Assembly (NCBI GenBank): GCA_041639695.1
Contig: JBEQBQ010000001.1
Span: forward strand, 31,634-95,633
Source: Candidatus Nanohaloarchaea archaeon
Lineage (GTDB): Archaea > Nanohalarchaeota > Nanosalinia > Nanosalinales > Nanosalinaceae
Direction of reading: 5' to 3'
DNA: 64,000 bases
Shown here: piece after piece, positions 5,870 through 62,913 of the stretch
How positions within the stretch are numbered: the first letter of the stretch is position 1
How the letters are laid out: each line of letters starts with the position of its first letter
Notes under the pieces: model-generated
Told to the model about the DNA's origin: nothing
Database searches by the model: none
Seen by the model: the letters and a program-made list of their open reading frames with translations, nothing else
Translations under genes and position numbers: made by a program

Positions 5870-5873
5870 CTGA

Positions 5874-6458: not shown

Positions 6459-6470
6459 GGTGAATAAGAT

Positions 6471-7022
6471 ATGGGAATATTTGAGACGCTGGTTCAGAAC
6501 ATGTCACAGATGGACTTGTTCCATCTCTTCTTCCCATGGCTACTGATCGTCGCAGTTACCTACGGTGCTTTGAACAAGACAGATCTCTTCGAAGAAGATA
6601 CTATTGATGCCGCTGTTGCCTTATCGGTAGGATTTATCGCGATGGCGGGACTGCTTGCGTTCGTACCGGCAAACATGTTCCCTCAGTTTGGAGCTGCGAT
6701 AGGATTTATCGTGTTTGGAATCCTTGGTTTATTGATCGTGCTGGCGATGGCAGGAGTCGACGTGAACGATCTCGCCGATACCGGGGACACACCTTTACGG
6801 GGTAACCCGATAGCTGTCGGAGGAATCATCCTAGTTTCGATAGCGTTCATAGGAGTGTTCCTGAGTTACTTCAACCTTGGAGGATACCTTCCCGGCTTCT
6901 CCGGAGACATCGATCTAAGCCTAAGCATAGGTAATGAAGCAGTGATGCAGGTATTGACCATGGTATTCATGCTGGCTTTAGTCGGAGTCGTTATCTGGGC
7001 GACCGGGGAAGACGACGGATAA
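6471..7022 (+). CDS. Multi-pass membrane protein, probable paralog of 5874-6458
   Basis: GAGGTGA RBS; QMDLFHLFFPWLL, about 5 TM segments. Confidence 0.72.
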   Translation: MGIFETLVQNMSQMDLFHLFFPWLLIVAVTYGALNKTDLFEEDTIDAAVALSVGFIAMAGLLAFVPANMFPQFGAAIGFIVFGILGLLIVLAMAGVDVNDLADTGDTPLRGNPIAVGGIILVSIAFIGVFLSYFNLGGYLPGFSGDIDLSLSIGNEAVMQVLTMVFMLALVGVVIWATGEDDG

Positions 7023-7080
7023 AAACTTCTCTAATTTTCTAGTTAATAATTAAGATAGAAATATGGTTGGAAACGTTTCT

Positions 7081-7965: not shown

Positions 7966-8423
7966 ATTTTGTCCTCTCCAAGGCCTTTACCTTCGGATTG
8001 TTGTTCCATGCTTTTAATCTTCCTGTCTATCATCCTCTCGACTTCATCCTTTGAAACGCCCTGTTTGCTGGACATCATCTTCTTAACCTCTTTTTTAGTC
8101 ATGAAAGAAGACTTTATAGGGTTCATTAGCTCCATGTAGTTTTCTATCTCTTCAATTTCCTGTTTGGAGACGTATTTTCTTTTTTCTCGGTTGAGGTCTT
8201 TGATGTCGACTTCCATGTTTGCCATTCTGTCCCGGATCTCCTCTATCTCGTCTTCAAGTTCCTGTATGTCGCCTGAAAGATCTTTTGTTTTCTCTAAGAC
8301 TGTGTCATCGAGAGTGTTGACTCTAGCGTTGATGTTTCTGACCTGTTCTTCCAGGTCTCGGACTCTTCGGTTGAAGTCGTTGACCCGGTTCACGATCCGG
8401 TTCATCAGGTCTTGCTGAGGCAC
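7962..8423 (-). CDS. Hypothetical coiled-coil protein divergent from the pilus ATPase
   Basis: Heptad repeats; GGTGA RBS before GTG. Confidence 0.7.
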   Translation of the reverse strand: MPQQDLMNRIVNRVNDFNRRVRDLEEQVRNINARVNTLDDTVLEKTKDLSGDIQELEDEIEEIRDRMANMEVDIKDLNREKRKYVSKQEIEEIENYMELMNPIKSSFMTKKEVKKMMSSKQGVSKDEVERMIDRKIKSMEQQSEGKGLGEDKI

Positions 8424-8452
8424 ACCTTTTATTCACCAACGGTTGAATATTA

Positions 8453-10714
8453 ATGGTAATGGCTGTACAGGACAAGGACGTCTTTGATTACGAGTACGAT
8501 GACGAGTCAGGAAAGATAGAGATAAACCTTCTAGGCTCGGTCTACGGTGCCTCTATCGAAGACTACCCCGAAGTAATGTCTAGGGTAATCAATATACTGC
8601 AAGAAGTGCCGGAAGCCAGTTCAGTAGTTCTCTCAGAATCAAGGGACTACGAATACGGCAAAGAACAGGTACAACTATTGAGAGAGATCTCAGATGCAAT
8701 AAGAGACATTTCATCACAAGGATATCTTTCGCAGAGCGTTAGAACCGATAAGTGCGAATCACTTTACTCAGAACAGTTGCCTGAAGTCCAGAGGATAGTT
8801 GTAGATCAGCTAAGAAAAGATCCTGTGGGTGCGTACGTACAGCTCAGAAGAAAGGAGAGACACTTGAAACAGCAGATGAACGATTCGTACCCTCAGAGAC
8901 AGCGCTGCATCAAGTTCTTCATACAGGATGTCGTGAACCCGGTTAAAGACAGGCTGGAAGAGTGTCAGCTAATACAGGACGCGGTAAGAGAAGATTTTGT
9001 TACAGGTCACCACGTAGGGGATAGAGAGGTTTACAGGGAGTACTTCCACCCTCTTGTTAGGCCGAACTTCATGCTTACAAAGTTCATGAGTCTACCTCCG
9101 GAGAGAGGTAAAGAGGTCGACCGCTACAAAGTAAAAGAAGATGTTGAGGTTTCGATCTACGAGGTACCGGACCAGGTACAGCCGGTTTACCATGTTGACC
9201 CGCCTGAGTTCAGTCTGCCGGAGGAAAAATACCGTTTGCTGGATGCGGCAAGACGTTTCCTTGCTTCGCACCAGCCCGAGTCAGGAGAGTTCGCAAGACC
9301 GGAGAGAATGAGGGACGTATTCCAGAACATCGGAAGGGACATGATACGTGATATCTCCCAGCAGATGGACATACAGTTATCCGGCGAAGAAATGGAGGAA
9401 ATGACCTCAATATTAAACCGTTACACTTCGGGTCTCGGCGTACTTGAACTATTGCTGGCTGATCCGAAGATTCAGGACGTTTTCATTAACTCTCCTATCG
9501 GCGACTCGCCTATCTACATCAAGCATCAGGACTACGAGGAATGTGAAACTAATCTAATACCTACAAAGGAGGAAGCAGAGTCCTGGGCAACAAGGTTCCG
9601 TATTAAGTCCGGAAGACCGTTAGACGAAGCTAATCCTGTACTGGATACTGAGGCTGAGGTGCCGGGAGGCCGTGCAAGGGTCGCAATTATACAGGAAAAC
9701 CTTTCGCCCGAAGGACTCGCATTTGCTTTCAGAAGACACCGTTCAAAGGCATGGACGCTACCGCTATTCATACACGAGAACTTCATCAACTCCCTAGGAG
9801 CAGCGCTCTTATCATTCATAGTTGATGGTAACCGGTCAGTACTGTTCGCAGGAACAAGAGGGGCAGGTAAGACCTCATTATTGTCGGCTTCGATGCTTGA
9901 ACTTCTTAAAAAAGATAGGATAGTAACTGTAGAGGACACGTTGGAACTCCCAATCCGTCAGATGAAAGATCTAGGTTTCAACCTTGAATCTATGAAGTCT
10001 CGCTCCGTAATTACCCAGGTAGAGAACGAGTTAGCGGCTCAGGACGCTATCAGAACCTCTCTGCGTTTAGGTGACTCAGCGTTGGTTATTGGTGAGGTAA
10101 GGTCGGATGAGGCCAAGACTTTGTACGAGGCTATGCGTGTCGGTGCGGTCGCAAACTTTGTAGGTGGAACAATCCACGGCGAAGACGCCTACTCCGTATT
10201 TGACAGGGTTGTAAACGACCTGAATGTGCCGAAAACATCGTTCAAGGCTACAGACATTATTGTACAGGTTAACAAGATTCAGTCGCCTGACGGACTTGAA
10301 ACATACAGAAGAGTTACAGGAATTACAGAGGTCAGGAAAGAGTGGACGGATGATCCTCAGGAGGAGGGTGCTTTCGTCGATCTTATGCGGTATGACTCGA
10401 ATAAAGACGAGTTGGTGCCTACAGACACTTTGCTTAACGGAGAGTCGCTTATTCTAAACAGGATTGCGGAAAACATCAGGGAATGGAAGAATGACTGGGA
10501 AGCCGTATGGAACAACATCCAGTTAAGGAAGGATATTAAGGAGGAGATTGTAAGGAAGGCGGAAGAGGAAGGGGAAGAATACTTGGAAGCCGATTTCACT
10601 GTTAAGGCAAACCAGAGATTCCACATCTTATCCAATAAGGTAGGCGAAGAGTACGGAAGTCAGGACCCGGAAAGGATCTTCGCCCGCTGGAAGGAATGGC
10701 TTCAACAGCAGTAG
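8453..10714 (+). CDS. Type II/IV secretion (VirB11/TadA/ArlI-like) ATPase with long N-terminal extension
   Basis: Walker A GTRGAGKT, VEDTLEL, LRLGDSALVIGEVR, GTIHG. Confidence 0.92.
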   Translation: MVMAVQDKDVFDYEYDDESGKIEINLLGSVYGASIEDYPEVMSRVINILQEVPEASSVVLSESRDYEYGKEQVQLLREISDAIRDISSQGYLSQSVRTDKCESLYSEQLPEVQRIVVDQLRKDPVGAYVQLRRKERHLKQQMNDSYPQRQRCIKFFIQDVVNPVKDRLEECQLIQDAVREDFVTGHHVGDREVYREYFHPLVRPNFMLTKFMSLPPERGKEVDRYKVKEDVEVSIYEVPDQVQPVYHVDPPEFSLPEEKYRLLDAARRFLASHQPESGEFARPERMRDVFQNIGRDMIRDISQQMDIQLSGEEMEEMTSILNRYTSGLGVLELLLADPKIQDVFINSPIGDSPIYIKHQDYEECETNLIPTKEEAESWATRFRIKSGRPLDEANPVLDTEAEVPGGRARVAIIQENLSPEGLAFAFRRHRSKAWTLPLFIHENFINSLGAALLSFIVDGNRSVLFAGTRGAGKTSLLSASMLELLKKDRIVTVEDTLELPIRQMKDLGFNLESMKSRSVITQVENELAAQDAIRTSLRLGDSALVIGEVRSDEAKTLYEAMRVGAVANFVGGTIHGEDAYSVFDRVVNDLNVPKTSFKATDIIVQVNKIQSPDGLETYRRVTGITEVRKEWTDDPQEEGAFVDLMRYDSNKDELVPTDTLLNGESLILNRIAENIREWKNDWEAVWNNIQLRKDIKEEIVRKAEEEGEEYLEADFTVKANQRFHILSNKVGEEYGSQDPERIFARWKEWLQQQ

Positions 10715-29853: not shown

Positions 29854-30821
29854 ATGGAATCAGAGCTAAAAGAAATCTTTGATGATGAGGAGAAGGCCGA
29901 GAAGCTATCCAGAGTCCTGGATAAAGAGGTTGAACGCCGGGTCGAGGAAAAAATTAACGGCCAGAGGAGGAAAAAGAAAGTTAAACAAACTGAAGAATTT
30001 TCTCGAAGATCTTTCCTGAAAAAGGTCGGTGCTGGCGCTGCGGGTATCGGAGCGATGGGATTGGCTTCGGCATCTGGACTAAAACTGACCGAAAGCGGCG
30101 TGTCAGGAATATCGGGTTTTAATATATCGGATTCTGGGTCAGATTATTTCAGGGTTAAAGATGGAGGTCCTGTGGAGGTTCTAAATGCTGGTTTAAGGAT
30201 TCCGACAGGCAAAAGCATTCAGGATGGGGGTGGCGGCGACAGACTAAACATCCTTTCAAATGGCACCTTCCTCTACGACGAATCCGGGCAAACAAAATTC
30301 GGGACACAGGATGGCTCTTATACAAGAATATACGCGGATTCTAGCCAACCATTTTACATAAGAGATCAGGAAGGAGGTTTCGATGCAGTTGAATACTCCA
30401 CGTCATCTTCTAAACCTGGAACTTTCAAGCTATCTAATTCAGTGCTGAAAACAGGGAAAGCGGCTTTAGGCTCCTTTCAAACCGATATTGTACAGGACTC
30501 GGATGGCGGCCAGACAAGGATGGAGCAGTTTGAAGACACTGTTTCTCAGACTGATGTGGAAATTGCTAGCGGGTTTGAAGGTTCTTTCGTAGTTGTGTCT
30601 GGCAGATCAAACGACGGAGGGGGCGGTATCCATTTACGGACTTAGTTCTAATGACTTGGAATAATACCTCTGCGACAACTCACTCTGTGGTGGCGCAGAC
30701 AGGTAGGAATTCGCCTGCCGCCAGAAACTACAGCTCTGACACAGGATCTCTCGAACTTAATATGGCTTCGGGAACCTACAGGGTGCGAGCAGCTTCAATT
30801 GTACTAACTGTCGGAGGATAA
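29854..30821 (+). pseudogene. Twin-arginine signal protein with tail-fibre-like beta repeats; apparent -1 frameshift near 30619-30624
   Basis: SRRSFLKKVGAGAAG motif; ORF stops at 30645 but a protein-like frame (RYPFTDLV...MASGTYRV...VGG*) continues to TAA at 30821 across a G-run. Confidence 0.62.
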
Positions 30822-50957: not shown

Positions 50958-51164
50958 TTACCACGGGTCGTGTTCAAAGCCGTGTTCTTCAGCTCTCTCA
51001 ATCATGTCATCTTCATCGAACTCTGAACAGGGTGCTTTCTGCCATTCCTCGAAATCATCGTTGATCTTGGCTGTGGCTTCCGCCTCCTCTTTGCTCATAA
51101 TCGAAACATTTGCGGTATCATCGTTGTAGAGCTCGATTATCCAGAAGTTCTCTTCCTCGGCCAT
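50958..51164 (-). CDS. Small acidic hypothetical protein
   Basis: 68 aa with typical composition. Confidence 0.6.
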   Translation of the reverse strand: MAEEENFWIIELYNDDTANVSIMSKEEAEATAKINDDFEEWQKAPCSEFDEDDMIERAEEHGFEHDPW

Positions 51165-51195
51165 ACCAAAATTTACTCCCGGACTTATTTATTAT

Positions 51196-52212
51196 TCAAC
51201 GGGTTCCGATTCTTATCTTCGAGCTGTTCGAGTAAAGCTTCCTGACGTAAAGCCCTATATCTCCGGACAGCCTGTCACTAAATCCTTTTACGCTGTATGC
51301 CGGTTCGTAGCCTACGTTTATCAGCGGGTTTTTCGGAATGCTGAAACCGAAGCTGGCCTCTTCTAATTCAAGAAAACTCCGGCTGTTTATCCTGTTTACC
51401 TCGTCCTCTATCTCCGAATAGCTTTTTGTGTTAGGGACTAGGAAGCTACCGCTTGTCTGAACCATTTCCAAGCTATCCGGTTCTCCGGAAACGTATCTTA
51501 TCTGTTTAAGTTCGCCGTAACTGACGAGTCCCAGACCCTCCTCGGTCGCAATATAAGGATTTGAAAGCTCTAAAGTGTTGAATATTCCTCCGGAGGACTG
51601 CTCGCCGTCAACATAAACATCTCCGGCATCAGTACTGAGTTCAAGAGAAATATTGTCGACTTTTTCAGTCTCCTGACACACCTGATACTTGAAGTGGCCC
51701 GGTTCAGCTACGTGTGAGTCAGATTTAGAGTGCAGCGAAAAGATCGGAGTATCGCAGCTCTGGTTAACAGAGGTTTCGAATCCATCGACACAGACATTCC
51801 AACGGTACTCGCTGAAAGTTGAAGCATGAGAATCGTTCCTCTGGAACATCGATATAACGGAGCTCTCCCCTGTTTTACAGCTATCTCTTATTTGTGCGGT
51901 TGAAACACCTTCGCCACACATCTGATACTTGAAATGGCCTGCTTCAGCGATATTACCGCCTTTTCTGTCGGTCAGGGAGAACAGGTTGACTTCCTGAGAA
52001 CTACAGCTCTGCTTGATCGAGAAAGATGGTTCTGCAGATGCCAGACCTCCAAAAAGAATTATCAGGCTGATGAAGATTTTGACTTTCACGTATTCTAGTT
52101 CGGTTCTCTGAGTTTTAACGGTTGCATTTTTCATCAACTGTTTAAACAATAAGAAAGAAACAAAGTGGTATGAAAGACAAAATCGTTCTAGTACTGGTCT
52201 TGATCGGTTCAA
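51196..52212 (-). CDS. Secreted protein with three Cys-containing repeats (true start probably downstream, near ATG 52134)
   Basis: Signal-like IFISLIILFGGLASA; repeats C...lFSl.....h.A..GHFKYQ.C. Confidence 0.7.
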   Translation of the reverse strand: MNRSRPVLERFCLSYHFVSFLLFKQLMKNATVKTQRTELEYVKVKIFISLIILFGGLASAEPSFSIKQSCSSQEVNLFSLTDRKGGNIAEAGHFKYQMCGEGVSTAQIRDSCKTGESSVISMFQRNDSHASTFSEYRWNVCVDGFETSVNQSCDTPIFSLHSKSDSHVAEPGHFKYQVCQETEKVDNISLELSTDAGDVYVDGEQSSGGIFNTLELSNPYIATEEGLGLVSYGELKQIRYVSGEPDSLEMVQTSGSFLVPNTKSYSEIEDEVNRINSRSFLELEEASFGFSIPKNPLINVGYEPAYSVKGFSDRLSGDIGLYVRKLYSNSSKIRIGTR

Positions 52213-52706
52213 TTATCTCTTTGGCTACGGCCCCCCAGCCTGAGCAAAGCCATAACCTTTCGGAGATAAATCCTATCGATGTAGATCTGAACATGTCGAG
52301 GATGGATATCTTCAACGTTACTGAACTAGATCTTTATTCTGGCTTAACTTTCTCCGGGAACTGGATAAGCGCGCCTGGCGGCCAAGATCTTTTAGGCTGG
52401 GATCTTGTCAACACCCAGCTTGAGGTGAAGAACGGCAACCTTAGTCTTGAAGGAAACCGGTTAATCAATATCGGCGGTATCTCGACCTGTACTCCAACTG
52501 AACTCGTTATGGGTGACGGAAGTTGTAAATCCTCATCCGACCTTTCAGTCTCCGATAACTGGGTAAACGAGACAGGCGACAACATGACCGGAGACCTTGA
52601 TATGAACGGAAACGAGATCAAAAACGCAACTATGGACAAGAGAGACTGTGCTTCAAACCCTCCCACACAGGTAGGTCAGATGGTCTACTGCACCAACGCG
52701 GACTGA
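52170..52706 (+). CDS. Cassette 1 gene A: signal-peptide protein with tail-fibre-like motif
   Basis: Sec-type signal; WVNETGDNMTGDLDMNGNEI; paralog of 55229-55576. Confidence 0.72.
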   Translation: MKDKIVLVLVLIGSIISLATAPQPEQSHNLSEINPIDVDLNMSRMDIFNVTELDLYSGLTFSGNWISAPGGQDLLGWDLVNTQLEVKNGNLSLEGNRLINIGGISTCTPTELVMGDGSCKSSSDLSVSDNWVNETGDNMTGDLDMNGNEIKNATMDKRDCASNPPTQVGQMVYCTNAD

Positions 52707-52708
52707 TA

Positions 52709-52921
52709 ATGATGGTTGAAGAATCGAGAAGGGAGTTTCTGAAGAAGGTAGCTGTTAGCCTGCCTGCGGTAGCCTTTCTTTTCTCCTCTCTACCCGTTTC
52801 ATCAGTAGTGATGTCAGAATTTTCGGAATCCTCTCAAGATTCAAGGGAGGTTGAGGAAAGAACAGATGATCCTTCAAAACCTGAAAATGGGAAAATCTGG
52901 TTCAGAAAAGATCTTTCCTGA
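52709..52921 (+). CDS. Cassette 1 gene B: small twin-arginine protein
   Basis: SRREFLKK plus hydrophobic helix; C-terminal RTDDPSKPENGKIWFRKDL. Confidence 0.72.
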   Translation: MMVEESRREFLKKVAVSLPAVAFLFSSLPVSSVVMSEFSESSQDSREVEERTDDPSKPENGKIWFRKDLS

Positions 52922-52941
52922 AACATTAAGGTAAACTCTAG

Positions 52942-55188
52942 ATGCCTAAGACTTACAATTTTGACGATAAAACAGAGGGAACGTTTACGATTAACAACAG
53001 TGCTTTTGACGATCAGGTCGGTCAACGCGCACAATCAGGTTCATATTCGGGCGGTGTAAGTGATGACCTGCCGCACGATCCGGCTGGGTTTGCCACATGG
53101 GAGCCGTGGGATGGTGAGGGCAGGAAGGTAAAAGAGATAGAATTTTACTATCAGGAGGACTATGACTCTTACGGAGGAGGACTACGCCTCATAAATTCTA
53201 ACGGGAATTATGAGTGCGGTTTTGCTACTGACAACGCGGCTTGGAAAGTATCGCATTCTTCAGGTGTTAGCAAAATAAACAGTTACAGCGATTATGACGT
53301 TTGGGTAAGGGTAAAAGTCACTTTTGACTGGTCTAATGACGAATTTACCGTCACATATGAAGGCCCATATGGTAGTTCAACCACTAAAACATTCTCTCTT
53401 AAGTATGGAATCGATGTAAAAGGCCTAGTTATGCATAATTTTAAGAGCGGGAGCTGGGATACTTCGGATAACTGCTACATGTGGTGGGATTCCCTGTATG
53501 CAGATGGGGGAACCTCTTCACCGTCCTCTCCGCAGAATGTATCAGCTAAAGTTGATTCGAACGATAAGATAAGTTTATCATGGGATCCTCCATCTGATTG
53601 GGGAGGGGAGGAAGGAAACTACAAAGTTCATATCTCCCGGGATAGTAACTCGTATACAGGCCCTTCCGGCGGTCCGACAACGCCTGGTTCGGGTACTGCT
53701 AGTGCCACCTATGGCCCAAACTCCGATAATTCGTATGATTCTCAGGTTGGTATTGACTCCAGTTTTCGTTTCCGTGTCCGTGCGGAGAACTCGGCCGGGA
53801 ACTCTGGCTGGACTTACTCGGGAACAGTTTACACCACTCCTACTGCTCCGAAGAAACCCTCGATTAGTAGACCGGATGCTAACACTGTCGAGATCTCTTG
53901 GACGTCGAATACTGATATAGGGAGTAATGCAAGAACGGATATTGAGTACCGTAAAGATACTGGTTCAGGTTACAGTGGCTGGTCTAACGTTGAAACAATA
54001 TCGGCGTCATCTAAAGGAACCCGAAGGACTAAGACCTATAGCGTGTCTTCTGACGGTTTCATGCAGGTAGATGCCCGCTACCAGTTCAGAATAGCACACT
54101 ACTTATATCAGGACACGGATGGAGATGGAAACAGTACCCTTTGGGAATCTCCTTATGTGTACGCTGACTACGGTAATGAAGGCAATATTTATTTTGAAGA
54201 TGATTTTGAATCCGGCGATCTCTCAAATTGGGGAGGCACAAGCTTGAATGATGCGCAGAGCGGTATCCGGTCCGGAAGTAATGGGGATCTGGGAATCTCA
54301 GGTGCCGATCAGGGAACATACTATGTCCGGTTAGATGGAGGTGATTGGATTAAGATACTGAATAGTTGGGATAAAGAGCCCAATAGCTATCCTTCAGATA
54401 CAGATATTATTGTAAAAGCCGTAGTGGCTGCGGGCTCTCTGGATTCGGCTTCCGAAACTACCAAAATACAGTGGTATGATGGCTCGAGTTGGAATAACCT
54501 CAGAACTTTCGGCCCAGAGTATAATAAACAAGGGTGGTTTGAAGTATCAGTTATAGTACCTTCCTCTCTGATTTCTAGTAACGTTGACCTACGTTTACTG
54601 GGTTATGGCGGTGGAGGAGATTATCTGGCTGTTGATAGAGTGGTTGTCTCGGATATCCTACACGAGTACACGAAACCTTCTGCACCTACAAACCTGGTTT
54701 CGAGATCAACGGGAACTGATAGTTTGGAGCTGGGCTGGACTGATAATGCAAGCTTCGAGGACAGGTACGAGATCCTTTACCGACAGACAGGGAGCGTGAG
54801 CTGGACCAGAGATCATAATGAACCCTCAAACTCTGAGTCCGGAGTGATCAACGGACTTCCTAAAGCTACACGTTTCGAGTTGAAGACACGGGACGTTGTT
54901 GAACAGCCTAGAAACGGCTCGATCAACAGTTACTGGTACCACGACAACATCCACCCGAACATCTCGACAGCGCTGGCGGAGACCATGTTAAACACGCCAT
55001 CGGGGAACGTTAAGGTCCCGGTTTTCGATCTGCAGGATGTCCAGAGGGATTTCATGAGAACGAAGACGCCCAACGGTATTGGGGCGTTAAACTTTGTTCC
55101 GACTAGTGATGCTGATCTTGATCAGGTTAGGATCTATACAGAAAGTTATGGCACTCTGGGTTTGAAGAGTGAGACTGAGAATAACTGA
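52942..55188 (+). CDS. Cassette 1 gene C: fibronectin type III repeat, lectin-like adhesin without signal peptide
   Basis: PSSPQNVSA..ISLSWDPP..FRFRVRAENSAG; PSAPTNL..LELGWTDNASFEDRY; FEDDFESGDLSNW. Confidence 0.78.
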   Translation: MPKTYNFDDKTEGTFTINNSAFDDQVGQRAQSGSYSGGVSDDLPHDPAGFATWEPWDGEGRKVKEIEFYYQEDYDSYGGGLRLINSNGNYECGFATDNAAWKVSHSSGVSKINSYSDYDVWVRVKVTFDWSNDEFTVTYEGPYGSSTTKTFSLKYGIDVKGLVMHNFKSGSWDTSDNCYMWWDSLYADGGTSSPSSPQNVSAKVDSNDKISLSWDPPSDWGGEEGNYKVHISRDSNSYTGPSGGPTTPGSGTASATYGPNSDNSYDSQVGIDSSFRFRVRAENSAGNSGWTYSGTVYTTPTAPKKPSISRPDANTVEISWTSNTDIGSNARTDIEYRKDTGSGYSGWSNVETISASSKGTRRTKTYSVSSDGFMQVDARYQFRIAHYLYQDTDGDGNSTLWESPYVYADYGNEGNIYFEDDFESGDLSNWGGTSLNDAQSGIRSGSNGDLGISGADQGTYYVRLDGGDWIKILNSWDKEPNSYPSDTDIIVKAVVAAGSLDSASETTKIQWYDGSSWNNLRTFGPEYNKQGWFEVSVIVPSSLISSNVDLRLLGYGGGGDYLAVDRVVVSDILHEYTKPSAPTNLVSRSTGTDSLELGWTDNASFEDRYEILYRQTGSVSWTRDHNEPSNSESGVINGLPKATRFELKTRDVVEQPRNGSINSYWYHDNIHPNISTALAETMLNTPSGNVKVPVFDLQDVQRDFMRTKTPNGIGALNFVPTSDADLDQVRIYTESYGTLGLKSETENN

Positions 55189-55228
55189 ACTGCGAACTGT
55201 TTTTAACGAATCGTGAGTATTTACAATT

Positions 55229-55576
55229 ATGCTGAAGAAAATCATTCTGACCACACTCCTCCTGCTTTCGGTGGCAGCTGCCGTAGCGCCAGCTAGTGAA
55301 CCCCGACACCCGTTTTCGCAGATAACTCCTGTGGACGTAAATCTTAACATGTCAAGGATGAACATATTCAACGTGACAGAAGTCGACCTGTACTCCGGGC
55401 TCGTCTTCTCCGGAAACGTGATACAGACTCCTGGGAACGCAGATATGCTTCTTTGGAACGGTGTAGAGAACAGGATTGATATAGAGCAAGACGTGAATAC
55501 CGGAGGCAATAACCTGAACCTGAGTGGCGGGAACCTGACATCGGACACGGAAGTATGTATAGGAGATCAGTGCTAG
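55229..55576 (+). CDS. Cassette 2 gene A: signal-peptide protein, paralog of 52170-52706
   Basis: Shared P.DV.LNMSRM.IFNVTE.DLYSGL.FSGN block; ends VCIGDQC. Confidence 0.72.
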   Translation: MLKKIILTTLLLLSVAAAVAPASEPRHPFSQITPVDVNLNMSRMNIFNVTEVDLYSGLVFSGNVIQTPGNADMLLWNGVENRIDIEQDVNTGGNNLNLSGGNLTSDTEVCIGDQC

Positions 55577-56308
55577 GTGAATAAAATGACTGAGATTGAG
55601 GATATAGTTGAAGATGAAGATAAGGCCAAGAGGCTTGAGGAGATAATAGAGAGAAAGGTCGAAGAGAGGGTCTCCTCGAATAAAAAAACTGGAGATGAAA
55701 GGAGTGAAGAGGTCTCTAGAAGAGGTTTCTTGAGGAAAATCGGGGCGGGTGCTTTAGGTTTCGGTGTTCTATCTCTTCCAGCTGCATCAGCCTTTAACAT
55801 CAGATCCAGTGATGCCTTGGAGGTCTATTCGAACGGAAACAAGTACTTTGATGTGGAGCCCGGCGGTCCTGTGAAAACAAATAACGCCGATTTACAGGTC
55901 GATGGTCAGTTGACGGCAGGAACCAACGGCAATTTTTATACGGATACAGGCATACTTTCCAGTGTCAGGTTAGATGGAGAGCAGACATTTTTCGAGGCTA
56001 ATACAACGGATTCTACGGGTCATGCAGGTATCGAACTTATAGGTAATGGTGAGAGCAAAGCGCGTTTTGAGTGGTCGGCAGGATCCGGTCATGCTAATAT
56101 AGAGGATGCTGTGAACAACAGTAACTGGGTCGTGTTTAATCCTGGAGGTTCGGTGGATGTAAAAACAAATCTTGAGGTAAACGGCAGTACTGTTTGGCAC
56201 GCCGGGAACGATGGCTCCGGTTCCTCACTTGAAGCGGACCAGATAGATGGTTATGACGTTCAAAAGGATGGGACGGATGGCAGCGGAGTCATAAACTTCA
56301 AGACCTAA
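55577..56308 (+). CDS. Cassette 2 gene B: twin-arginine protein with tail-fibre-like C-terminus; paralog of 29854
   Basis: SRRGFLRKIGAGALG; VWHAGNDGSGSSLEADQIDG; likely start ATG 55586 after AGGTGA. Confidence 0.75.
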   Translation: MNKMTEIEDIVEDEDKAKRLEEIIERKVEERVSSNKKTGDERSEEVSRRGFLRKIGAGALGFGVLSLPAASAFNIRSSDALEVYSNGNKYFDVEPGGPVKTNNADLQVDGQLTAGTNGNFYTDTGILSSVRLDGEQTFFEANTTDSTGHAGIELIGNGESKARFEWSAGSGHANIEDAVNNSNWVVFNPGGSVDVKTNLEVNGSTVWHAGNDGSGSSLEADQIDGYDVQKDGTDGSGVINFKT

Positions 56309-56309
56309 G

Positions 56310-57206
56310 ATGACAATCAACATAGATGGTTCCAAGGTTAAGAGTATAACTATAGATGGAATAACGGTCCAAGAGGTTACTATAGATGGAACAGTCGTCT
56401 TTACCGCCGATTTTAGCTCTTCTGGAATCTCTCTAGATGATTATTCTAATATAAGTGGTAATGCTTCAGGTGCAAGAGGGGGTATAGAAGTCAAAGGTAA
56501 GACGGCAGGGAGGATATGGGCAGGAGGTAGCAATAGGGTAATGCAGTTCAGTCTTTCATCAGGTAGTTTTATTTCAACCAGTTTCGAGTCTGAAATCTAT
56601 ATAGGCGATACAGAATATCTCTTCTCCATCTCCTGGGGTCCAAACGGGGAGAATCTGGTAGCTATAGGTTCACAAGAAGAAGCAGTAATTAATGTCGATA
56701 CGAAATATGACATCAGTACGGGCTCTGTATCCTATTATAGCACTAACTACGCATACGGCAACACTAGAGGTTGTGACATCTTTCAGGATAGTGATGGAAA
56801 CACTGGCATGTTAACGGTTACACGAGATACAAATAAGATTTTCCAGTATGACCTCAGTATAAACTCTTCAACAGGTACTAATCCAAGTTCCTCAGGTTCA
56901 TATAACTATGAAGATGATATAAATAATGCGGTTAAAGGAGTTTCAATAACTAATAATGGGGAAACCGTTATTTTGAATACCAGCAGTACATCGCCAACGA
57001 GCGCGGTTATAGCAGAGTATAATCTTTCTACTCCCTACGATATAAGCACTGCGTCTCTAGAATCTACAACAGAAGTAACTACTGAATATGGATCCTTCAC
57101 CGAAACCGATCTTAACCGTCTAGCTGTCGGCGAAGATGGAATGAAACTCTACACATTAAACGATTATGCTTCAGAGAATGAATACTACATAGGTATGTAC
57201 TCTTGA
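56310..57206 (+). CDS. Cassette 2 gene C: signal-less S/T/N-rich beta-propeller-like adhesin
   Basis: N-terminal IDG triple repeat (INIDGSKVKSITIDGITVQEVTIDGTVVF); YNLSTPYDISTA blade motifs. Confidence 0.7.
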   Translation: MTINIDGSKVKSITIDGITVQEVTIDGTVVFTADFSSSGISLDDYSNISGNASGARGGIEVKGKTAGRIWAGGSNRVMQFSLSSGSFISTSFESEIYIGDTEYLFSISWGPNGENLVAIGSQEEAVINVDTKYDISTGSVSYYSTNYAYGNTRGCDIFQDSDGNTGMLTVTRDTNKIFQYDLSINSSTGTNPSSSGSYNYEDDINNAVKGVSITNNGETVILNTSSTSPTSAVIAEYNLSTPYDISTASLESTTEVTTEYGSFTETDLNRLAVGEDGMKLYTLNDYASENEYYIGMYS

Positions 57207-57212
57207 AATTTT

Positions 57213-57680
57213 TTACTTGCTAACATCTATAGAGTCGGTACTAACTTCTTTTTCAGGGCATTCCGAACTCGATACAATTATCGTATCAGGTATTTTCTCG
57301 GAACGAAGCTCTGTTACTAGTTCATCCCGGACCTCCAGTTCTTTCAGAGTTTTCTGTCCTGTAACTTCCGATCTGTTAAGGGCCACAACCGTTAGATCGT
57401 TGTAGAGGCTGATTGTACCGGTGTTAACGATTTCAACTTCGGCTACGTTACCTGTAATATCGTAGCTAACCGATCTTATGTTAAAGCCGGCGTTTCGACA
57501 TGTAATCTGATTGTTAGCTTGGTCTACGGCTTCTTGGGTGGCGTCTTCTGATATTTCTGGAGCCCAAGAGGAGTAGATTCCGGCTATTGAAACAGCTACT
57601 GCCAGAAGCAGGACAGAGGAAACTAGTGCCGATATTCCTACCGAGTTATGTCGTCCAGCCTGTCCGTTGCTGAAGTGCAT
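57213..57680 (-). CDS. Archaeal type IV pilin-like protein
   Basis: VG/ISALVSSVLLLAVAVSIAGI; paralog of the neighbour (SSWAP); Cys pair. Confidence 0.8.
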   Translation of the reverse strand: MHFSNGQAGRHNSVGISALVSSVLLLAVAVSIAGIYSSWAPEISEDATQEAVDQANNQITCRNAGFNIRSVSYDITGNVAEVEIVNTGTISLYNDLTVVALNRSEVTGQKTLKELEVRDELVTELRSEKIPDTIIVSSSECPEKEVSTDSIDVSK

Positions 57681-58069
57681 CTTGTTGAAAATGTTTTAAC
57701 GTATGAGGGTTTGTCGCTTAGGCTTTCAAGCCTTGTATCGTTCACTTCGCCGTTTGAAAGGTTTAAATTCTCTCCCTGTTTTAGTATAACGTTGTTTGAG
57801 TCGAATGCAGCAACTACAACTTTCTCTAGAGGTACGTTTCCTGTGTTTCTAGCTGTAACAGTTAAATTAGTGCTTGACGAGTTGTAGTAAGCCGATACGG
57901 TATTTATAGAAGCTTTGTCGCAGTTAAGCGTGTTTAGAGTCTGGTTAGTCGTTCTATCGGTCACATCTTCCGCAAGGTTAGGAGCCCATGACGAAAATAT
58001 TACGACCGTTGACATCGTCACCGCAAGTAAAAGTACGGAGGCAACAATAGGAGAGATTCCCTTTCTCAT
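57638..58069 (-). CDS. Archaeal type IV pilin
   Basis: MRKG/ISPIVASVLLLAVT; RNTGNV; Cys pair. Confidence 0.88.
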   Translation of the reverse strand: MRKGISPIVASVLLLAVTMSTVVIFSSWAPNLAEDVTDRTTNQTLNTLNCDKASINTVSAYYNSSSTNLTVTARNTGNVPLEKVVVAAFDSNNVILKQGENLNLSNGEVNDTRLESLSDKPSYVKTFSTRCTSATDRLDDITR

Positions 58070-58122
58070 ACATTTAGAATCCGTTCTGCCGCTATTTAAA
58101 GCCTCCAGAAAATTGTTTTTGA

Positions 58123-59340
58123 TTATAGGAAGAATGTTGTCGCCAGGTATCCTATCGCGAAAAGAACGGCCATGTGTTTAAATCCTGCTTTAAGCTCTCC
58201 TTCTGCCAGTTTACCGATTATAAGTCCTGAGAAGAGAGCCTGGAAGTAGACAAGTCTAGAGAACCATGAGTTGTAAAGTGTTATGTTTTGTTGGAGGCTT
58301 GCGCCGCCACCACCATTTCCAAGAACGGAGAATCCGCCTGAACCTCCTAATGATTGCTGTGCGTCAGCAAGATTAGGCAAAAGATAGTTTGTAAGTGCGA
58401 CAAGAATTCCGATAAAGATAAAGAAGACGATGTATCCGGTAACCATCTCGCCGTAAAGCTGGGATTCTCTTTCCTCCTTCAACTGTTTAATCGTTCTAAT
58501 ATTGTCGCCTACGGATTCCAGCACGTCCTGAATATTTCCTCCGGAGCTGTAAGCCTGTATGATTGTGTCGACTGATCTTCTTACAACGTCTGATTGTGTT
58601 TCCTCTGCAAAGTTTTGTAGAACATCTTCGAAAGGCACTCCCCAGTCGAGCTGGGCGTTCATCTTCTCTATTTTTTCGTCTAAAGGTCCATAGCTTCCTG
58701 TCTCGGTGTTCTGGATTGCTTGGGGGAGAGACATTCCGGCTCTTGTACCTTCAACAACATCTCTCAAGAGCTCCGGGAACTTTTCTTCCATCTTTTTCCT
58801 AGCTACGTACTGCTCGTACTTGACATACATGATCGGTGCCGCCATCAAAAGCAGCGAGAAAATGTTGAACAGTACGAACATTAGCTGCTGGAAGTTGGTC
58901 TGTGAGGTAACTTCGGCGTCCACAAGCGCCTGAGACTGGAATCCAATACTAGGTCTTGTGATTCTTACGGTGTTGTTTACCTGTATCCTTTCTGCACTAG
59001 GTTTTATGAGGGCAGTATTAGAGTCCACGCTATCCAGACTCTCGCCGTTAAGGTAAACATCAACTCCGTTGCCTGAAGAAATGTTCCTGAACGTAAGTGA
59101 AATGGTCGTGCCTTTTGCGAGAGAAGGCTGATTTATCGTGAAATTGAAACTGGCATCCTGTTCGTTATCGATGGTTATAGGCTCCTCCAGCTGGAATTTG
59201 ACCATGTTCTGCTCGCTCTGGTGGAAGTTGAACAGCATCAAGGAAGCTCCAACTATGAAAGCTACTGAGATCAAGACAATAAGTCTTTCATTCTTCCTCC
59301 AGAAGTTCTTTGCCTTCAGCTTCATTCTTTGCTTGTCCAT
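58123..59340 (-). CDS. Type II secretion F (TadC-like) platform protein with extracellular insertion
   Basis: FPELLRDVVEGTRAGMSLPQAI, WGVPFEDVL, SSGGNIQDVL. Confidence 0.88.
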   Translation of the reverse strand: MDKQRMKLKAKNFWRKNERLIVLISVAFIVGASLMLFNFHQSEQNMVKFQLEEPITIDNEQDASFNFTINQPSLAKGTTISLTFRNISSGNGVDVYLNGESLDSVDSNTALIKPSAERIQVNNTVRITRPSIGFQSQALVDAEVTSQTNFQQLMFVLFNIFSLLLMAAPIMYVKYEQYVARKKMEEKFPELLRDVVEGTRAGMSLPQAIQNTETGSYGPLDEKIEKMNAQLDWGVPFEDVLQNFAEETQSDVVRRSVDTIIQAYSSGGNIQDVLESVGDNIRTIKQLKEERESQLYGEMVTGYIVFFIFIGILVALTNYLLPNLADAQQSLGGSGGFSVLGNGGGGASLQQNITLYNSWFSRLVYFQALFSGLIIGKLAEGELKAGFKHMAVLFAIGYLATTFFL

Positions 59341-59341
59341 T

Positions 59342-60265
59342 TTAGTCCACCGTTAATGCGAGGAATGCTACGAATAGAGAGTTTATTGCCGGAATTATTA
59401 TGTGTACGCCAAGCCACATCAGGTCTCTAATAGCAAAACCTCCAATTGAGCCGCCAAGAAGGTTCATAACCGCCAGTACAACCACGAGGAAGACAGGTGC
59501 CGCGATCAGGATTGCTGTGTAGAAAGATGCGTAGGTCGATAGTTTTTCGATCTCCTTCTCCCTTTCCATGTTGTAGTCGAAAAGCGCCTCGTCCGCTTTC
59601 TCATTAATGTACGACTCGAGATCACCCCCAGTTTCTACAGTTGAAATTATGCCGTAGAGTACTTCGCTCCAGTCTTCGGAAGGTGATTTTTCGGCAACTT
59701 CTTTCAAAGCAGTGGTGAGATCCTCTCCGAATACGTTCACACGTCTTGAAATCTCTTCCGCCTCGTCTGAGATACCTCCGTACTCGTCAAAAGTGGTTAA
59801 TAATTCAAACATCGACTTTGGAGGGATTCCGGATGTCGCAATCGCGCCCAAGTGGTTTAATGCGAAAGGAAGGTTGTCATCGATGTCTTGTTTCCTTGAT
59901 TTAGCTTTCTGCGAAGGATAGATGTACATGAAGCCGAAGATCGCTAGTGCAAGTGCGAAGGGAACTCCTACCACAAATCTCATCGCGTTTAACAGTCCGA
60001 AACCGCTTGAAACTGAGAAAACTATTCCGCCTAGCAGCCCGATAATCGCCGCGAAACAGCTGAAAAGAAATGCCTTAGACATGTAAGTCCTGAATAGGAC
60101 ATCCATATCGGCTTCTTTCAGGTCCTGCTTTACGTCTTGGAAGCTATCGGAGTACTTGTCAACGGTGGGGCCGAATAAAGCATTAGCTGCAGCGTTGATG
60201 TTGTCTGTCTTGGAGGCCTGCTTCAGCCTGTCCAGAAACTTGGACTCAAACGGGTCTTGGCTCAT
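59342..60265 (-). CDS. Type II secretion F (TadB/TadC-like) platform protein
   Basis: IDDNLPFALNHLGAIATSG, FGEDLTTAL, ETGGDL. Confidence 0.88.
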   Translation of the reverse strand: MSQDPFESKFLDRLKQASKTDNINAAANALFGPTVDKYSDSFQDVKQDLKEADMDVLFRTYMSKAFLFSCFAAIIGLLGGIVFSVSSGFGLLNAMRFVVGVPFALALAIFGFMYIYPSQKAKSRKQDIDDNLPFALNHLGAIATSGIPPKSMFELLTTFDEYGGISDEAEEISRRVNVFGEDLTTALKEVAEKSPSEDWSEVLYGIISTVETGGDLESYINEKADEALFDYNMEREKEIEKLSTYASFYTAILIAAPVFLVVVLAVMNLLGGSIGGFAIRDLMWLGVHIIIPAINSLFVAFLALTVD

Positions 60266-60900
60266 TGAACCTTAATTCCATCGTTTTTGAAGACGTATTT
60301 ATGGACTCCGTGGCTGTAGTCGGATCCACGAAGCTTCTTGACAAATATCTGTCTTTCTATCTTGCCCTGGTTTCTATTAACCTCCATCTCGATAATTCCG
60401 TCAGCTATCTCTTCCTCAATCTCTGTGGCTTCACCTTTCTCCGCAACCAAGAAGGTGGTGGCGTTGAGGTTTCTCAACTCTTTTTTGAGAGATAGAAGGT
60501 TTTTCCTAACGTCCTTCCTCGAATCAATATAAAGATCTAAGTCCGTGATAGGGTCTATTACTACGCGTGAAGCGTTGTTTTCTTTGACGCTACCTCTCAC
60601 CATGTCCGGGACTTGTTCGCTCCTGTAAGGATCCATTTTCCTGATGTTAATACTGCCGTCTTCAACCTGCTGGTCGAAACGCCAGTCAAAAGTGTTTGCT
60701 CTAAGTATATCGTCTTCGGTCTCCTGGAAAGAAACGAAAAGACCGTTCTGACCGTCTACTGCACCCCGGTAAAGGAATTCAAGCCCCATGTTAGACTTTC
60801 CCGCACCAGGCTCACCCTTAATCAAAATCATCTGGCCTTCGGGTATACCTCCTCCCAGAAGCCTATCTAGATTATGTATTCCGGATTGGATCTTTCGCAT
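60262..60900 (-). CDS. KaiC/RAD55-like ATPase (ArlH-like position)
   Basis: GIHNLDRLLGGGIP, GEPGAGKS, RVVIDP, ADGII, VKKLRG. Confidence 0.88.
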   Translation of the reverse strand: MRKIQSGIHNLDRLLGGGIPEGQMILIKGEPGAGKSNMGLEFLYRGAVDGQNGLFVSFQETEDDILRANTFDWRFDQQVEDGSINIRKMDPYRSEQVPDMVRGSVKENNASRVVIDPITDLDLYIDSRKDVRKNLLSLKKELRNLNATTFLVAEKGEATEIEEEIADGIIEMEVNRNQGKIERQIFVKKLRGSDYSHGVHKYVFKNDGIKVQ

Positions 60901-60903
60901 TAT

Positions 60904-62913
60904 TTAAGCCTCGAATGGGTTTTCGTCCTGTTTTTTCTCTCCCTTAAATGGGTTTTCCTCTGTTTCATCGTCGAAACGGATTTCGTTTATCTTCTCCCTC
61001 TCCGCTTTAAGCTTTCTCTCTAAATCCTCTACAGGATTTTTTTCCGATCTTTTCTTGTGATCTATAGGTGTTTTAGAATCTATTTCTCTCTCATTTTTTT
61101 CTTCAGGCTTATCTTCAGATGCCGGTTTTTCTTGATCGGCCTTGGAACCTGAGTTTTCGTCCTCGACCTCAGACTCGAAATCCTCCTTCAAGTTATCCTT
61201 CTGCTTGTTATCCTTTTCTATGGCGTCGTCAAGACCTTTCCGGTCTCTCGACAGATCCACTTTTTCCTCGGCCTCAATAATATCATCAAGTTTGTACTCG
61301 TCTTCCTCCGAGTTAACCATCTTCAAGATCTCGTCTTTGTTCTTATAGTATTCTGCAATTACGTCTGAGACTGTATGGAAGTCTTTCACGCCTTTGTCCT
61401 GAAGCCATTCGAGTACCTTTGTCCTACGTTCCATCTCGGTGTTAAGCTTCTGTTTCGATACACCGAAGTCTTTCGAGATCTGGTCAAACAGATAAGGTTC
61501 GCCTCTCTGGTTAAAGCTGTCATCGATCGCTGTCCATGAAAACGCTTCGTTGGTTCTCGCAGAAGCTGATTCGCCGACAACCTTCTGGAGTTCGTGAATG
61601 CCTTTAGCCCTTCTTGCAGATTTCTCTACGCCTTTAGCGTGTGTCATGATAACCATGACATCGATCGCCTCAATTAGGGCGGGGGAAAGCGAGATTGGAG
61701 GCGTAATAAGCCTTTTCACAACTGCGTTTGGTGAGGATGCGTGCATAGTACCGATTGAAGGGTGTCCGGAGGACATACCCTGGAAAAGCACGGATGCCTC
61801 TTCACCACGGACCTCACCGACTACAACGTAGTCCGGGTTCTGCCTGAAAGACTCTTTTAGCAGCTGATCCATGTCTACGTCGCCCTGGCTTGAAGTACCA
61901 AACATCTCTCTTGTAACTGAAGGGATCCAGTTCTCGTGAGGTAGCTGAAGCTCACGAGTGTCCTCAATAGAAACAATTTTGTCCTCTGGAGGAATGAAGG
62001 AAACTATAGAGTTCAAAAATGATGTTTTTCCTGTAGCTGTTCCTCCGCATACAAGTATTGACTGGTTGTACTGCTGACATATCCACATGTATGCCATTAG
62101 TTCGGCGTTCGCAGTACCTAAATCCATTATATCGATCGCGGAGAAAGGTGTATCTTGGAACTTTCTGATCGAGAATGTAGGTCCGTGCGCTGTAACATCT
62201 TCCGTCAGCGATGCGTTTACACGCGAACCATCAGGTAAAGCTCCGTCAAGCAACGGATTGGCATATGAAACATAACGTCCGCAACGTTCCGCAAGTTTAA
62301 TTACAAGGTTTTCGAGTTTATCTCCGTCTTCAAAAACAATATCTGATTTGACCGACCCAAATTCGCTGTGAACAGCGAATATAGGGGTGTTTGTGCCGTC
62401 ACAACCCAGGTCTTCAATATATGGGTCGTGCATGAAAGGTTCGACCTTTCCAAGTCCGACAAAGTCTCTGTAAATATAGTAGAGTATTTTATCGTGCTGT
62501 TCCTCCGATAGACTGATACCTAATTCTAACAGAAGTTCGTTGATCTTGTCCTGAAGATAGTCGATAATCTTTTCTCGGCCATCCAGAGAGCTTAGTGAGA
62601 CATCAATTTTCTCGGAGAGGTTATCTTTGATCTTGTTAAGTGCTTCTTCGTCCGCTTCCTCCAGTTCGGGTTCTATAATTCTATAGATCAGTTCTTTTTG
62701 GTCTTTGTCCCACTTGATGTGTGCGTATGCAAAAGGTTTAATCAGAGGGTATTTTACATCGACATCTGCCATCTTTTCGATATTGGATGTAATCTTTACG
62801 TCTTTCTGGTCGCTTAAAGTAAAGTCTATCCGCTCTCCTGTGTTCTCGAACGCTAAATCTCGCGTATCCTCATCGTCCGAGAAAGCTTCCCTGATTGAGT
62901 CGACCAGTGACAT
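60904..62913 (-). CDS. Type II/IV secretion (VirB11/TadA/ArlI-like) ATPase with charged C-terminal tail
   Basis: LPDGSRVNA, FSIRKF, GGTATGKT, IEDTREL, RQNPDYVVVGEVRG, TMHA. Confidence 0.93.
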   Translation of the reverse strand: MSLVDSIREAFSDDEDTRDLAFENTGERIDFTLSDQKDVKITSNIEKMADVDVKYPLIKPFAYAHIKWDKDQKELIYRIIEPELEEADEEALNKIKDNLSEKIDVSLSSLDGREKIIDYLQDKINELLLELGISLSEEQHDKILYYIYRDFVGLGKVEPFMHDPYIEDLGCDGTNTPIFAVHSEFGSVKSDIVFEDGDKLENLVIKLAERCGRYVSYANPLLDGALPDGSRVNASLTEDVTAHGPTFSIRKFQDTPFSAIDIMDLGTANAELMAYMWICQQYNQSILVCGGTATGKTSFLNSIVSFIPPEDKIVSIEDTRELQLPHENWIPSVTREMFGTSSQGDVDMDQLLKESFRQNPDYVVVGEVRGEEASVLFQGMSSGHPSIGTMHASSPNAVVKRLITPPISLSPALIEAIDVMVIMTHAKGVEKSARRAKGIHELQKVVGESASARTNEAFSWTAIDDSFNQRGEPYLFDQISKDFGVSKQKLNTEMERRTKVLEWLQDKGVKDFHTVSDVIAEYYKNKDEILKMVNSEEDEYKLDDIIEAEEKVDLSRDRKGLDDAIEKDNKQKDNLKEDFESEVEDENSGSKADQEKPASEDKPEEKNEREIDSKTPIDHKKRSEKNPVEDLERKLKAEREKINEIRFDDETEENPFKGEKKQDENPFEA

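Follow-up and report, generated by a model that had tools for sequence, protein, structure and literature searches.

Two three-gene operons in a nanohaloarchaeal genome

The 64,000-nucleotide (nt) stretch analysed here (the window) comes from a 971-kb assembly, 89% complete, of a Candidatus Nanohaloarchaea archaeon (hereafter G000), whose proteins have best matches named Ca. Nanohalobium or Nanohaloarchaea in their sources. Within the window lie two neighbouring gene trios, A1-B1-C1 and A2-B2-C2, in which the A genes encode putative Sec-exported proteins, the B genes proteins with a twin-arginine (RR) motif of the twin-arginine translocation (Tat) type, and the C genes extracellular-looking proteins free of any signal peptide. 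The original prediction had read these trios as a domesticated, tail-fibre-like attachment system with swappable tips. All six open reading frames (ORFs) were confirmed at the coordinates collected in Table 1 and are intact, and the twofold A-B-C layout was thereby recovered exactly as described. The intergenic spacing inside each trio is 1–20 nt, and 5′ of each trio lies a gap of about 40–70 nt with a TATA-like box 22–29 nt before the A start; A1-B1-C1 and A2-B2-C2 form two operons. Of the AT-rich gap ascribed to each copy, the short gaps and their TATA-like boxes stood, and at 300-nt resolution a dip in G+C (GC) content (0.40) was seen at the first gap only; the GC content of the block (0.41–0.51) is similar to that of its flanks. 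No direct repeats of at least 40 nt were found in 51000–57400, and the two cassettes thus represent a repeated layout rather than a recent DNA duplication.

As claimed, the twin-arginine motifs SRREFLKK in B1 and SRRGFLRK in B2 are present, each followed by a hydrophobic stretch, and the two C genes are unrelated to each other (best E 0.26), with an fn3 match in C1 (E 1.4e-10) and a propeller model for C2. Neither C ORF has a hydrophobic N-terminus, and for neither is an upstream extension possible.

B2 and C2 meet at the junction of viral shaft and tip genes

B2 ends in ..GYDVQKDGTDGSGVINFKT, and C2 starts 1 nt past the B2 stop codon with MTINIDGSKVKSITIDGITVQEVTIDG, which comprises three IDG-type repeats. 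An IDG-repeat profile of C2 relatives found five viral contigs in IMG/VR (L037–L041), in all of which the upstream gene ends in ..Y[DEK]I[QV]K[DN]G.D..GVINFKT(N/Q) and the IDG gene starts 0–3 nt later. A second shaft–tip pair is encoded elsewhere in G000 (L028, 6824–7246(−) and 5687–6817(−)), and the motif GVINFKT stands at the stop codon or one residue before it in B2, in the L028 gene and in 5/5 viral shafts, so that the INFKT/IDG junction is kept in 7/7 pairs. In L038 and L040 a baseplate wedge gene (phrog_6, E 1.7e-51 and 5.3e-51) comes first, followed in turn by a baseplate protein gene (phrog_1160), the shaft gene and the tip gene. None of the five viral shaft proteins carries an RR signal, and the shaft and tip proteins of the viral contigs are very acidic, as expected given that their hosts are salt-in organisms. 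A third IDG-headed gene of G000 has a different C-terminal domain; more widely, IDG-repeat heads carry differing C-terminal domains, and N-terminal IDG repeats are common to 8 of 26 aligned C2 relatives.

B2 itself gave weak tblastn matches to phage tail fibres (CRP-603, E 2e-5; MED4-213, E 8e-4) and matched the tail-fibre family phrog_30299 (E 1.7e-3), and its motif WHAGNDGSGSxLxAD is shared by a protein annotated as ‘pyocin knob domain-containing’. Judged from these sequences, B2-C2 is a shaft-plus-tip pair joined in the same way as those of viral tail modules, and the junction conserved in 7/7 pairs suggests that shaft and tip would bind each other in a trimeric fibre. A complex prediction of C2 with B2 residues 73–243 scored 0.00 twice and was used neither for nor against binding.

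The AlphaFold2 model of C2 is a five-bladed beta-propeller (predicted local distance difference test, pLDDT, 82.3; pTM 0.82), which reached a TMq of 0.65–0.68 against predicted viral proteins, higher than the 0.4–0.5 of Foldseek against solved structures, and a best Z of 18.9 against solved five-bladed propellers. C2 relatives number 441 at E ≤ 1e-3 among 1.84 billion representatives and share the blade ‘DGxKxY…LSTPxDISTAS’; a word-based homolog search yielded only five weak matches beside C2 itself. C2 falls into no Pfam or NCBIfam family and had no tblastn match among 50,697 phage records, and its 27-member alignment hit only eight PHROGs families, each through 1/27 members.

C1 is related to tail-tip proteins of haloarchaeal siphoviruses

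C1 aligns with HrrHm1_100 of the Halorubrum siphovirus Humcor1 at 193/480 identical residues (40%, E 2e-89), beginning at viral residue 241, so that the N-terminal ~240 residues of the viral protein are lacking in C1; in addition, C1 residues 60–185 match HrrHm1_100 residues 806–935. HrrHm1_100 is encoded two genes downstream of the tape measure and is left unannotated in the available part of the Humcor1 paper (PMC7911831). HALG_00046 of CGphi46 is placed likewise, with an E of 1e-74 for tblastn of C1 against CGphi46. Among the 50,697 phage records, C1 found matches in tailed viruses of haloarchaea and in one uncultured phage of 484 kb, and in no others. In HGTV-1, where gene 33 directly follows baseplate genes, C1 residues 674–735 match the beginning of that gene. 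The match to the 484-kb phage (LR756508.1) covers C1 residues 13–186 (window 52942–53500; 31.6% identity, E 2e-10), and the C1 N-terminal domain also matches two other places in G000, at contig positions C4:17331–17558 and C2:25716–26123. Against PDB sequences, C1 matched FN3 only.

A scan for C1 homologs with one genome per species gave ten loci, one of which (L043) was left out of the gene-order comparison. A Hum_095 homolog directly precedes the C1 homolog in 6/6 haloarchaeal genome loci, and a Hum_105 homolog follows it in 5/6, the sixth stopping at the contig end; the C1 family of haloarchaea therefore lives in provirus tail modules, and the GC content of these loci is 0.62–0.64, against 0.41–0.51 in the two-operon block. 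In two nanohaloarchaeal loci (L042 and L045), Hum_095 was absent, and the only Hum_105 matches were weak and fell across the 3′ end of the C1-like gene. Full-length C1 is patchy, being present in 3/41 related genomes searched, and one ortholog is named in its source as a Ca. Nanohalobium constans protein. By homology, C1 is a cellular version of the FN3/lectin-like core found in a tail-tip protein of Halorubrum-type siphoviruses.

A mini Tat protein precedes C1, and a large Tat family has charged n-regions

B1 and B2 are alike over the signal only (18/45, E 1e-4). B1 consists of a Tat signal and about 35 residues with a conserved C-terminal peptide, and its description as a fibre was abandoned on this ground. 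Its orthologs measure 70 amino acids (aa) in a genome of the same genus (G002) and 75 aa in one of a different genus (G021), and its position in L042 and L045 is held by small Tat proteins of 126 and 124 aa, respectively, ending in ..APSNP.TNDIWIDTS. Altogether, a small RR protein ending in P..P...[IL]W... precedes 5/5 nanohaloarchaeal C1 homologs (G000, G002, G021, L042 and L045), with one extra gene between it and C1 in G002. The last ~17 residues of B1 are kept across genera while signal and linker drift. The arrangement of a small Tat protein before C1 was found in 0/6 haloarchaeal loci, where Hum_095 precedes instead, and a motif scan of the Humcor1, CGphi46 and HGTV-1 loci detected no B1-type C-terminal peptide. 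The C-terminus of A1 ends in a P...G.hh motif loosely similar to the B1 peptide.

The gene inserted between the B1 and C1 orthologs of G002 is one of two paralogous 243-aa genes of no known family (L018, 3232–3963 and 10519–11250), which may be mobile.

G000 encodes the Tat components TatA_B_E (E 1.4e-11) and TatC (E 3e-54), both located among B-family genes in a further locus (L005); TatC was matched once in the assembly, and it lies 0.6–9 kb from a B-family gene in 5/6 related genomes having both. The B family counts 26 members in G000 by motif and 30 matches by search, about 3% of G000 genes, with a Tat signal followed by ..SASGLKLT.NG; other genomes gave 0 to 8 matches. The n-region before the RR motif measures at least 40 aa in 23/26 members (median 50), its charged stretch spanning 40–58 aa. 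About half of the n-region residues are charged, and hydrophobic occupancy is 0.485 at heptad a/d positions versus 0.235 overall. Literature searches returned no description of charged, coiled-coil-like Tat n-regions, and we know of no earlier account of such heptad-like sequences. The B profile matched PDB sequences in the Tat signal only. Two B-like genes in L005 (11532–12006 and 12295–13021), one of them the closest B2 paralog, appear split into overlapping ORFs and may reflect frameshifts, pseudogenes or assembly errors.

The A proteins belong to a wider Sec adhesin family

With 44/89 identical residues (E 4e-26), A1 and A2 are paralogs; their N-termini are hydrophobic as judged by eye, in agreement with the original prediction, and residues H28..S31..P35.D37 of the A-domain are invariant in 14 sequences. 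The A-domain occurs in 17/41 related genomes; outside the source genus it forms both ends of long Sec proteins of 518–2722 aa, which begin with HP[LF]S.I.P.D and end with C.G..C, and the A1 C-module recurs in a 538-aa gene upstream of the G021 B1 and C1 orthologs. The A genes of the source genus are short, stalk-less forms of a Sec adhesin family. The longest member, the 2722-aa protein of G013, holds 12 stretches of YadA-head repeats (E 2.3e-75), and a weak YadA match was seen in G006. None of these repeats was found in A1 or A2. The G013 protein (L020, 2141–10309) resembles trimeric autotransporter adhesins and comes from an archaeon that has no outer membrane.

Neither A1 nor A2 matched anything in Pfam or NCBIfam, A1 had no tblastn match in the phage records, and the A profile had none among PDB sequences. 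The best score of A1 in the ESM Atlas, 0.87, fell to viral clusters including Mtd_N and T4 gp9/10; lying below the counting level, it serves as a lead only. A B gene follows the A gene in 3/4 cases in G000. In 5/5 loci from other genera, a D-like gene lies at most two genes from the A-family gene, and pilin-like genes follow the A-family gene in 4/5; D1 paralogs also adjoin A3 and A4 in L005. A is best described as the minimal form of a Sec adhesin family whose genes are linked to a divergent D gene and to pilin-like operons, and not as the cassette-specific part that it had been taken for.

D-family genes encode secreted proteins of ~300 aa with three Cys-containing repeats (…H.AEPGHFKYQVC…) and are divergent from the A genes; two of them lie in L005 (5398–6309(−) and 6816–7730(−)), and in other genera the family heads operons of pilin-like genes. 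Pfam and NCBIfam searches assigned D1 to no family. A pilin-like protein of G021 (L036, 10199–10978(−)), with a class III-type N-terminus by eye, ends in ..CMGQTC and so shares the C.G..C end of the A family, which hints at a link between A and pili. In G002, a 385-aa Sec protein encoded after an A gene (L018, 16626–17783) contains three G.LW[VI]E..…H[WF]IDQNGDER repeats reminiscent of the B1-type ..IWF.. peptide. In L005, A4 (7797–8135) overlaps the next Tat gene (8107–9024) by 29 nt, and the product of that Tat gene matched Collar (E 4e-4) and T4 Gp10_C (E 2e-3) weakly, with neither match reaching its cut-off.

Genomic setting and conservation in relatives

Searches of the whole of G000 found no PF05065, PF03237, PF04860 or PF00589 (capsid, terminase, portal, integrase) and no phrog_6, phrog_1160 or PF04984 (baseplate, sheath), which extends to the entire 89%-complete assembly the earlier remark that no capsid, terminase or integrase gene is nearby; with these hallmark virion families absent, the block is not a recognisable degraded provirus. 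When 27 Humcor1 proteins were compared with G000, only HrrHm1_100 and the cellular-type Orc1 and MCM had matches, and neither Hum_095 nor the tape measure protein did. A diversity-generating retroelement was considered and rejected, there being no RVT_1 match in G000.

The order D, A1, B1, C1, A2, B2 is kept in G002, where C1 is enlarged to 1402 aa and the C2 position is held by a different gene, encoding a glycine-rich protein, as the notion of a swappable tip had anticipated. In G021, a Sec protein with the A1 C-module is joined by the Tat mini protein of 75 aa and by a C1 ortholog of 755 aa.

The block abuts a type IV pilus-like locus, as noted before, with two T2SSF genes, a KaiC-like gene and T2SSE/PilB3_C; a Pilin_N match at 57638–58069 remained below its cut-off (E 2e-4, 22.5 versus 25.2 bits). 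Flanking housekeeping genes encode deoxyhypusine synthase and arginyl-tRNA synthetase.

Table 1. Features of the two operons and of their surroundings, in window positions
Feature	Position	Strand	Basis
A1, 178 aa, putative Sec signal, A-domain and C-module ending in ..MDKRDCASNPPTQVGQMVYCTNAD	52170–52706	+	ORF, alignment
B1, 70-aa mini Tat protein, RR signal and conserved C-terminal peptide DPSKPENGKIWFRKDLS	52709–52921	+	ORF
C1, 748 aa, signal-less, FN3/lectin-like, siphovirus tail-tip homolog	52942–55188	+	ORF, homology
A2, 115 aa, minimal A-family member: signal, A-domain, C-terminal CIGDQC	55229–55576	+	ORF, alignment
B2, 243 aa: 47-aa charged n-region, SRRGFLRK, tail-fibre-like shaft, junction ..GYDVQKDGTDGSGVINFKT	55577–56308	+	ORF
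C2, 298 aa, signal-less putative tip: IDG-repeat head (residues 1–32) and five-bladed beta-propeller	56310–57206	+	ORF, model
TATA-like box tttaaa, putative A1 promoter	52141–52146	+	Sequence read; 24–29 nt upstream of A1
TATA-like box tttttaac, putative A2 promoter	55200–55207	+	Sequence read; 22–29 nt upstream of A2
D1, secreted Cys-repeat protein, divergent from A1	51196–52212	−	ORF; the real start probably lies 3′ of the listed TTG
Type IV pilus-like locus: two pilin-like, two T2SSF, KaiC-like ATPase, T2SSE/PilB3 ATPase	57213–62913	−	
Coiled-coil/Tat (B) family member standing alone	29854–30645	+	In window

Interpretation and alternatives

We consider it fairly probable that the two operons are domesticated viral receptor-binding modules that serve as cell-surface attachment fibres, with the signal-less C proteins exported on B through Tat; attachment of the symbiont to its own host probably relies on host-recognition parts of viral type. 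What sets the cellular versions apart from their viral counterparts is the addition of export signals, namely the ~47-aa n-region and RR signal of B2 and the mini Tat protein before C1. The fibre parts would fold and join in the cytoplasm, as during virion assembly, after which TatAC would export them folded, the C proteins hitchhiking on B. With its conserved C-terminal peptide, B1 could serve as a signal peptide in trans, fibre chains may be pre-assembled by the coiled-coil n-region, A may be a cell-side adaptor, an anchor role guessed from gene position, and the C domains would bind the haloarchaeal host surface. A more specific account, which we hold only tentatively and rate as somewhat doubtful, is that the symbiont has turned the receptor-binding parts of its hosts’ viruses into an attachment organ exported in a way not described before, in which the last ~17 residues of B1 carry folded C1 out via Tat, some 30 Tat substrates pre-assemble by a 40–58-aa coiled coil, and A1 might receive C1 on the surface. 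The repurposing of viral fibres proposed originally is thus retained for the C genes and B2, which are homologous to halophile-virus tail modules, and given up for B1 and the A parts.

Several observations weigh against this domestication reading. Export, B–C contact, trimer formation, surface display and host binding are deduced from genes and homology, and promiscuity is typical of surface modules such as FN3, lectin-like and propeller domains. B1 and B2 scored 15.0 and 15.7 bits with the Tat-signal hidden Markov model TIGR01409, narrowly under its cut-off of 16.7, and in two other cultivated nanohaloarchaea, according to the accessible part of the report, Tat was judged likely inactive on the ground that TatC alone was found (PMC10266531). 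B2 is one of 26–30 paralogs, most without an A or C neighbour; the three-part scheme is not general, because about 20/26 B-family genes stand without a C-like neighbour and A–B adjacency is 3/4. The phage-like motifs listed at the outset stood for the B2 motif and the IDG repeat; those of A1 and B1 gained no search support. PHROGs returned nothing for C2 itself, and the AlphaFold2 model of A1 (14-row alignment; pLDDT 64.1, pTM 0.32) was too poor for use, for which reason no fold search was made from it. In the C1 core tree, which has a midpoint root only and 17/55 inner branches unsupported, the nanohaloarchaeal rows do not form one clade and lie among haloarchaeal and viral rows; as far as these sequences tell, exchange is evident and the direction of transfer is left unsettled.

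The last point feeds the explanation that these are ordinary nanohaloarchaeal surface adhesins built from a common stock of FN3, lectin, propeller and fibre domains, and that the viruses took their modules from this stock or from cells themselves, so that no domestication would have occurred; the adhesin targets may then be polysaccharides or the cell’s own envelope rather than the host. Such an origin agrees with the YadA-head repeats in A-family relatives, with the FN3-only outcome of sequence searches against solved structures and with the operons of LamG, trimeric-autotransporter-like and pyocin-knob proteins already proposed for attachment in other nanohaloarchaea, as far as the accessible text of that report goes (PMC10266531). 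We nevertheless regard it as unlikely: the INFKT/IDG junction lies directly after baseplate genes in viral contigs, all six haloarchaeal C1 homologs sit in provirus tail modules, full-length C1 is patchy among the related genomes, and the cellular forms look derived because an export signal replaces the viral N-terminus.

It is less likely still that B is exported by Tat and C is not its passenger, C remaining cytoplasmic, taking another route such as pilus-type machinery or cell–cell bridges, or being a folding or assembly factor of B, with B1 an independent small secreted or membrane peptide. In phages the gene slot after a fibre often holds assembly chaperones, of the P2 gpG and T4 gp38 types, a type IV pilus-like locus adjoins the block, and B–C contact is itself our deduction. 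This explanation fits poorly with C1, which is 748 aa of FN3/lectin-like domains resembling a virion tail protein, with C2, whose predicted fold is that of a phage receptor-binding platform, with the drift of the B1 signal and linker beside a conserved C-terminal peptide, and with the small Tat proteins before 5/5 nanohaloarchaeal C1 homologs. The least probable explanation, and in our view a very improbable one, is that the block is what decay has left of the tail-fibre end of the nanohaloarchaeon’s own provirus, or belongs to a tailocin-like particle, and does nothing for the cell. Tailed viruses of nanohaloarchaea do exist and, in the portion of the preprint available, are reported to exchange structural genes with haloarchaeal viruses (bioRxiv 10.1101/2025.02.15.638363), and some L005 B-like genes look split. 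Against decay stand six intact ORFs, synteny held in two genera, a GC content equal to that of the host genome, and the lack of capsid, terminase, portal, integrase, baseplate, sheath and reverse-transcriptase families in an assembly of this completeness; Sec and Tat signals would moreover be unexpected on virion tail parts, as the RR-less viral shafts illustrate.

Host recognition by DPANN archaea is an open question, for which C1, C2 and the C1 ortholog named after Ca. Nanohalobium constans are candidates. If the domestication reading is true, some nanohaloarchaea recognise their hosts with the same molecular keys as the hosts’ viruses, symbiont and virus are predicted to compete for the same receptors, and archaea would offer a clear example of domesticated viral tail fibres; Tat biology would likewise be extended to a mini-protein signal acting in trans and to coiled-coil n-regions, both of which could then be useful for engineering the export of folded oligomers in halophiles. 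Within the literature available and the terms used, searches turned up no account of nanohaloarchaeal homologs of halovirus tail proteins or of nanohaloarchaeal fibres coupled to Tat. As far as these searches reach, the new elements are chromosomal symbiont homologs of halovirus tail-tip and tail-fibre modules, their conserved junctions, and their Tat coupling with signal-less partners.

Comparison with known systems

B2-C2 and the viral shaft/tip pairs (L037–L041) have the same shaft C-terminus and tip N-terminus, a 0–3-nt spacing in the viral contigs and interchangeable tip C-terminal domains; gp37/gp38 of T4 and gpH/gpG of P2 are analogous fibre/tip gene pairs. The viral pairs follow baseplate genes and carry no export signal, whereas B2-C2 has no baseplate gene, a charged n-region with a Tat signal, and A2 and the pilus locus as neighbours. 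C1 shares 40% identity over the FN3/lectin-like core with HrrHm1_100 of Humcor1, whose CGphi46 counterpart is HALG_00046 (Graaviviridae), and even its N-terminal domain recurs in the viral protein; C1 differs in lacking the viral N-terminal ~240 residues, the Laminin_G_3 end and the Hum_095, Hum_105 and tape-measure flanks, the mini Tat protein preceding it instead.

The search of C2 against phage structures, which the original prediction had called for, pointed to the host-recognition device of staphylococcal phage phi11 (PDB 5efv), in which, as in C2, an N-terminal stem leads into a platform with a five-bladed propeller (model residues 1–298: Z 15.6, root-mean-square deviation 4.8, 248 residues aligned). 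The two share 8% identity, and cellular five-bladed propellers reach equal or higher scores (Z 18.9 for the C-terminal domain of YjiK, Z 18.4 for glutaminyl cyclase), so the likeness, as far as the model goes, is a resemblance of fold only. With R-type pyocins and tailocins the operons share the keeping of phage tail-fibre modules for the cell’s own use, and the B2 motif found in a pyocin-knob-named protein; they differ in that sheath, tube and baseplate families are absent from G000 and that these proteins bear Sec or Tat signals.

Within the phylum, the adhesin operons of Ca. Nanohalococcus SVXNc, which encode LamG, trimeric-autotransporter-like and pyocin-knob proteins and have been proposed to mediate host attachment, come without a report of halovirus tail homology, Tat coupling or signal-less partners in the accessible part of their description (PMC10266531). 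Both organisms have large strain-specific surface sets with trimeric-autotransporter-like and fibre-knob modules. For the proposed export route, the precedent is the Tat hitchhiker mechanism, established for signal-less partners of redox enzymes such as HybO/HybC of Escherichia coli hydrogenase-2 and DmsA/DmsB. The operons resemble it in having a signal on one partner only, adjacent genes and an encoded Tat translocase; they depart from it in that the mature part of the putative carrier B1 is about 35 aa and the presumed cargo is a virus-like adhesin rather than a redox enzyme.

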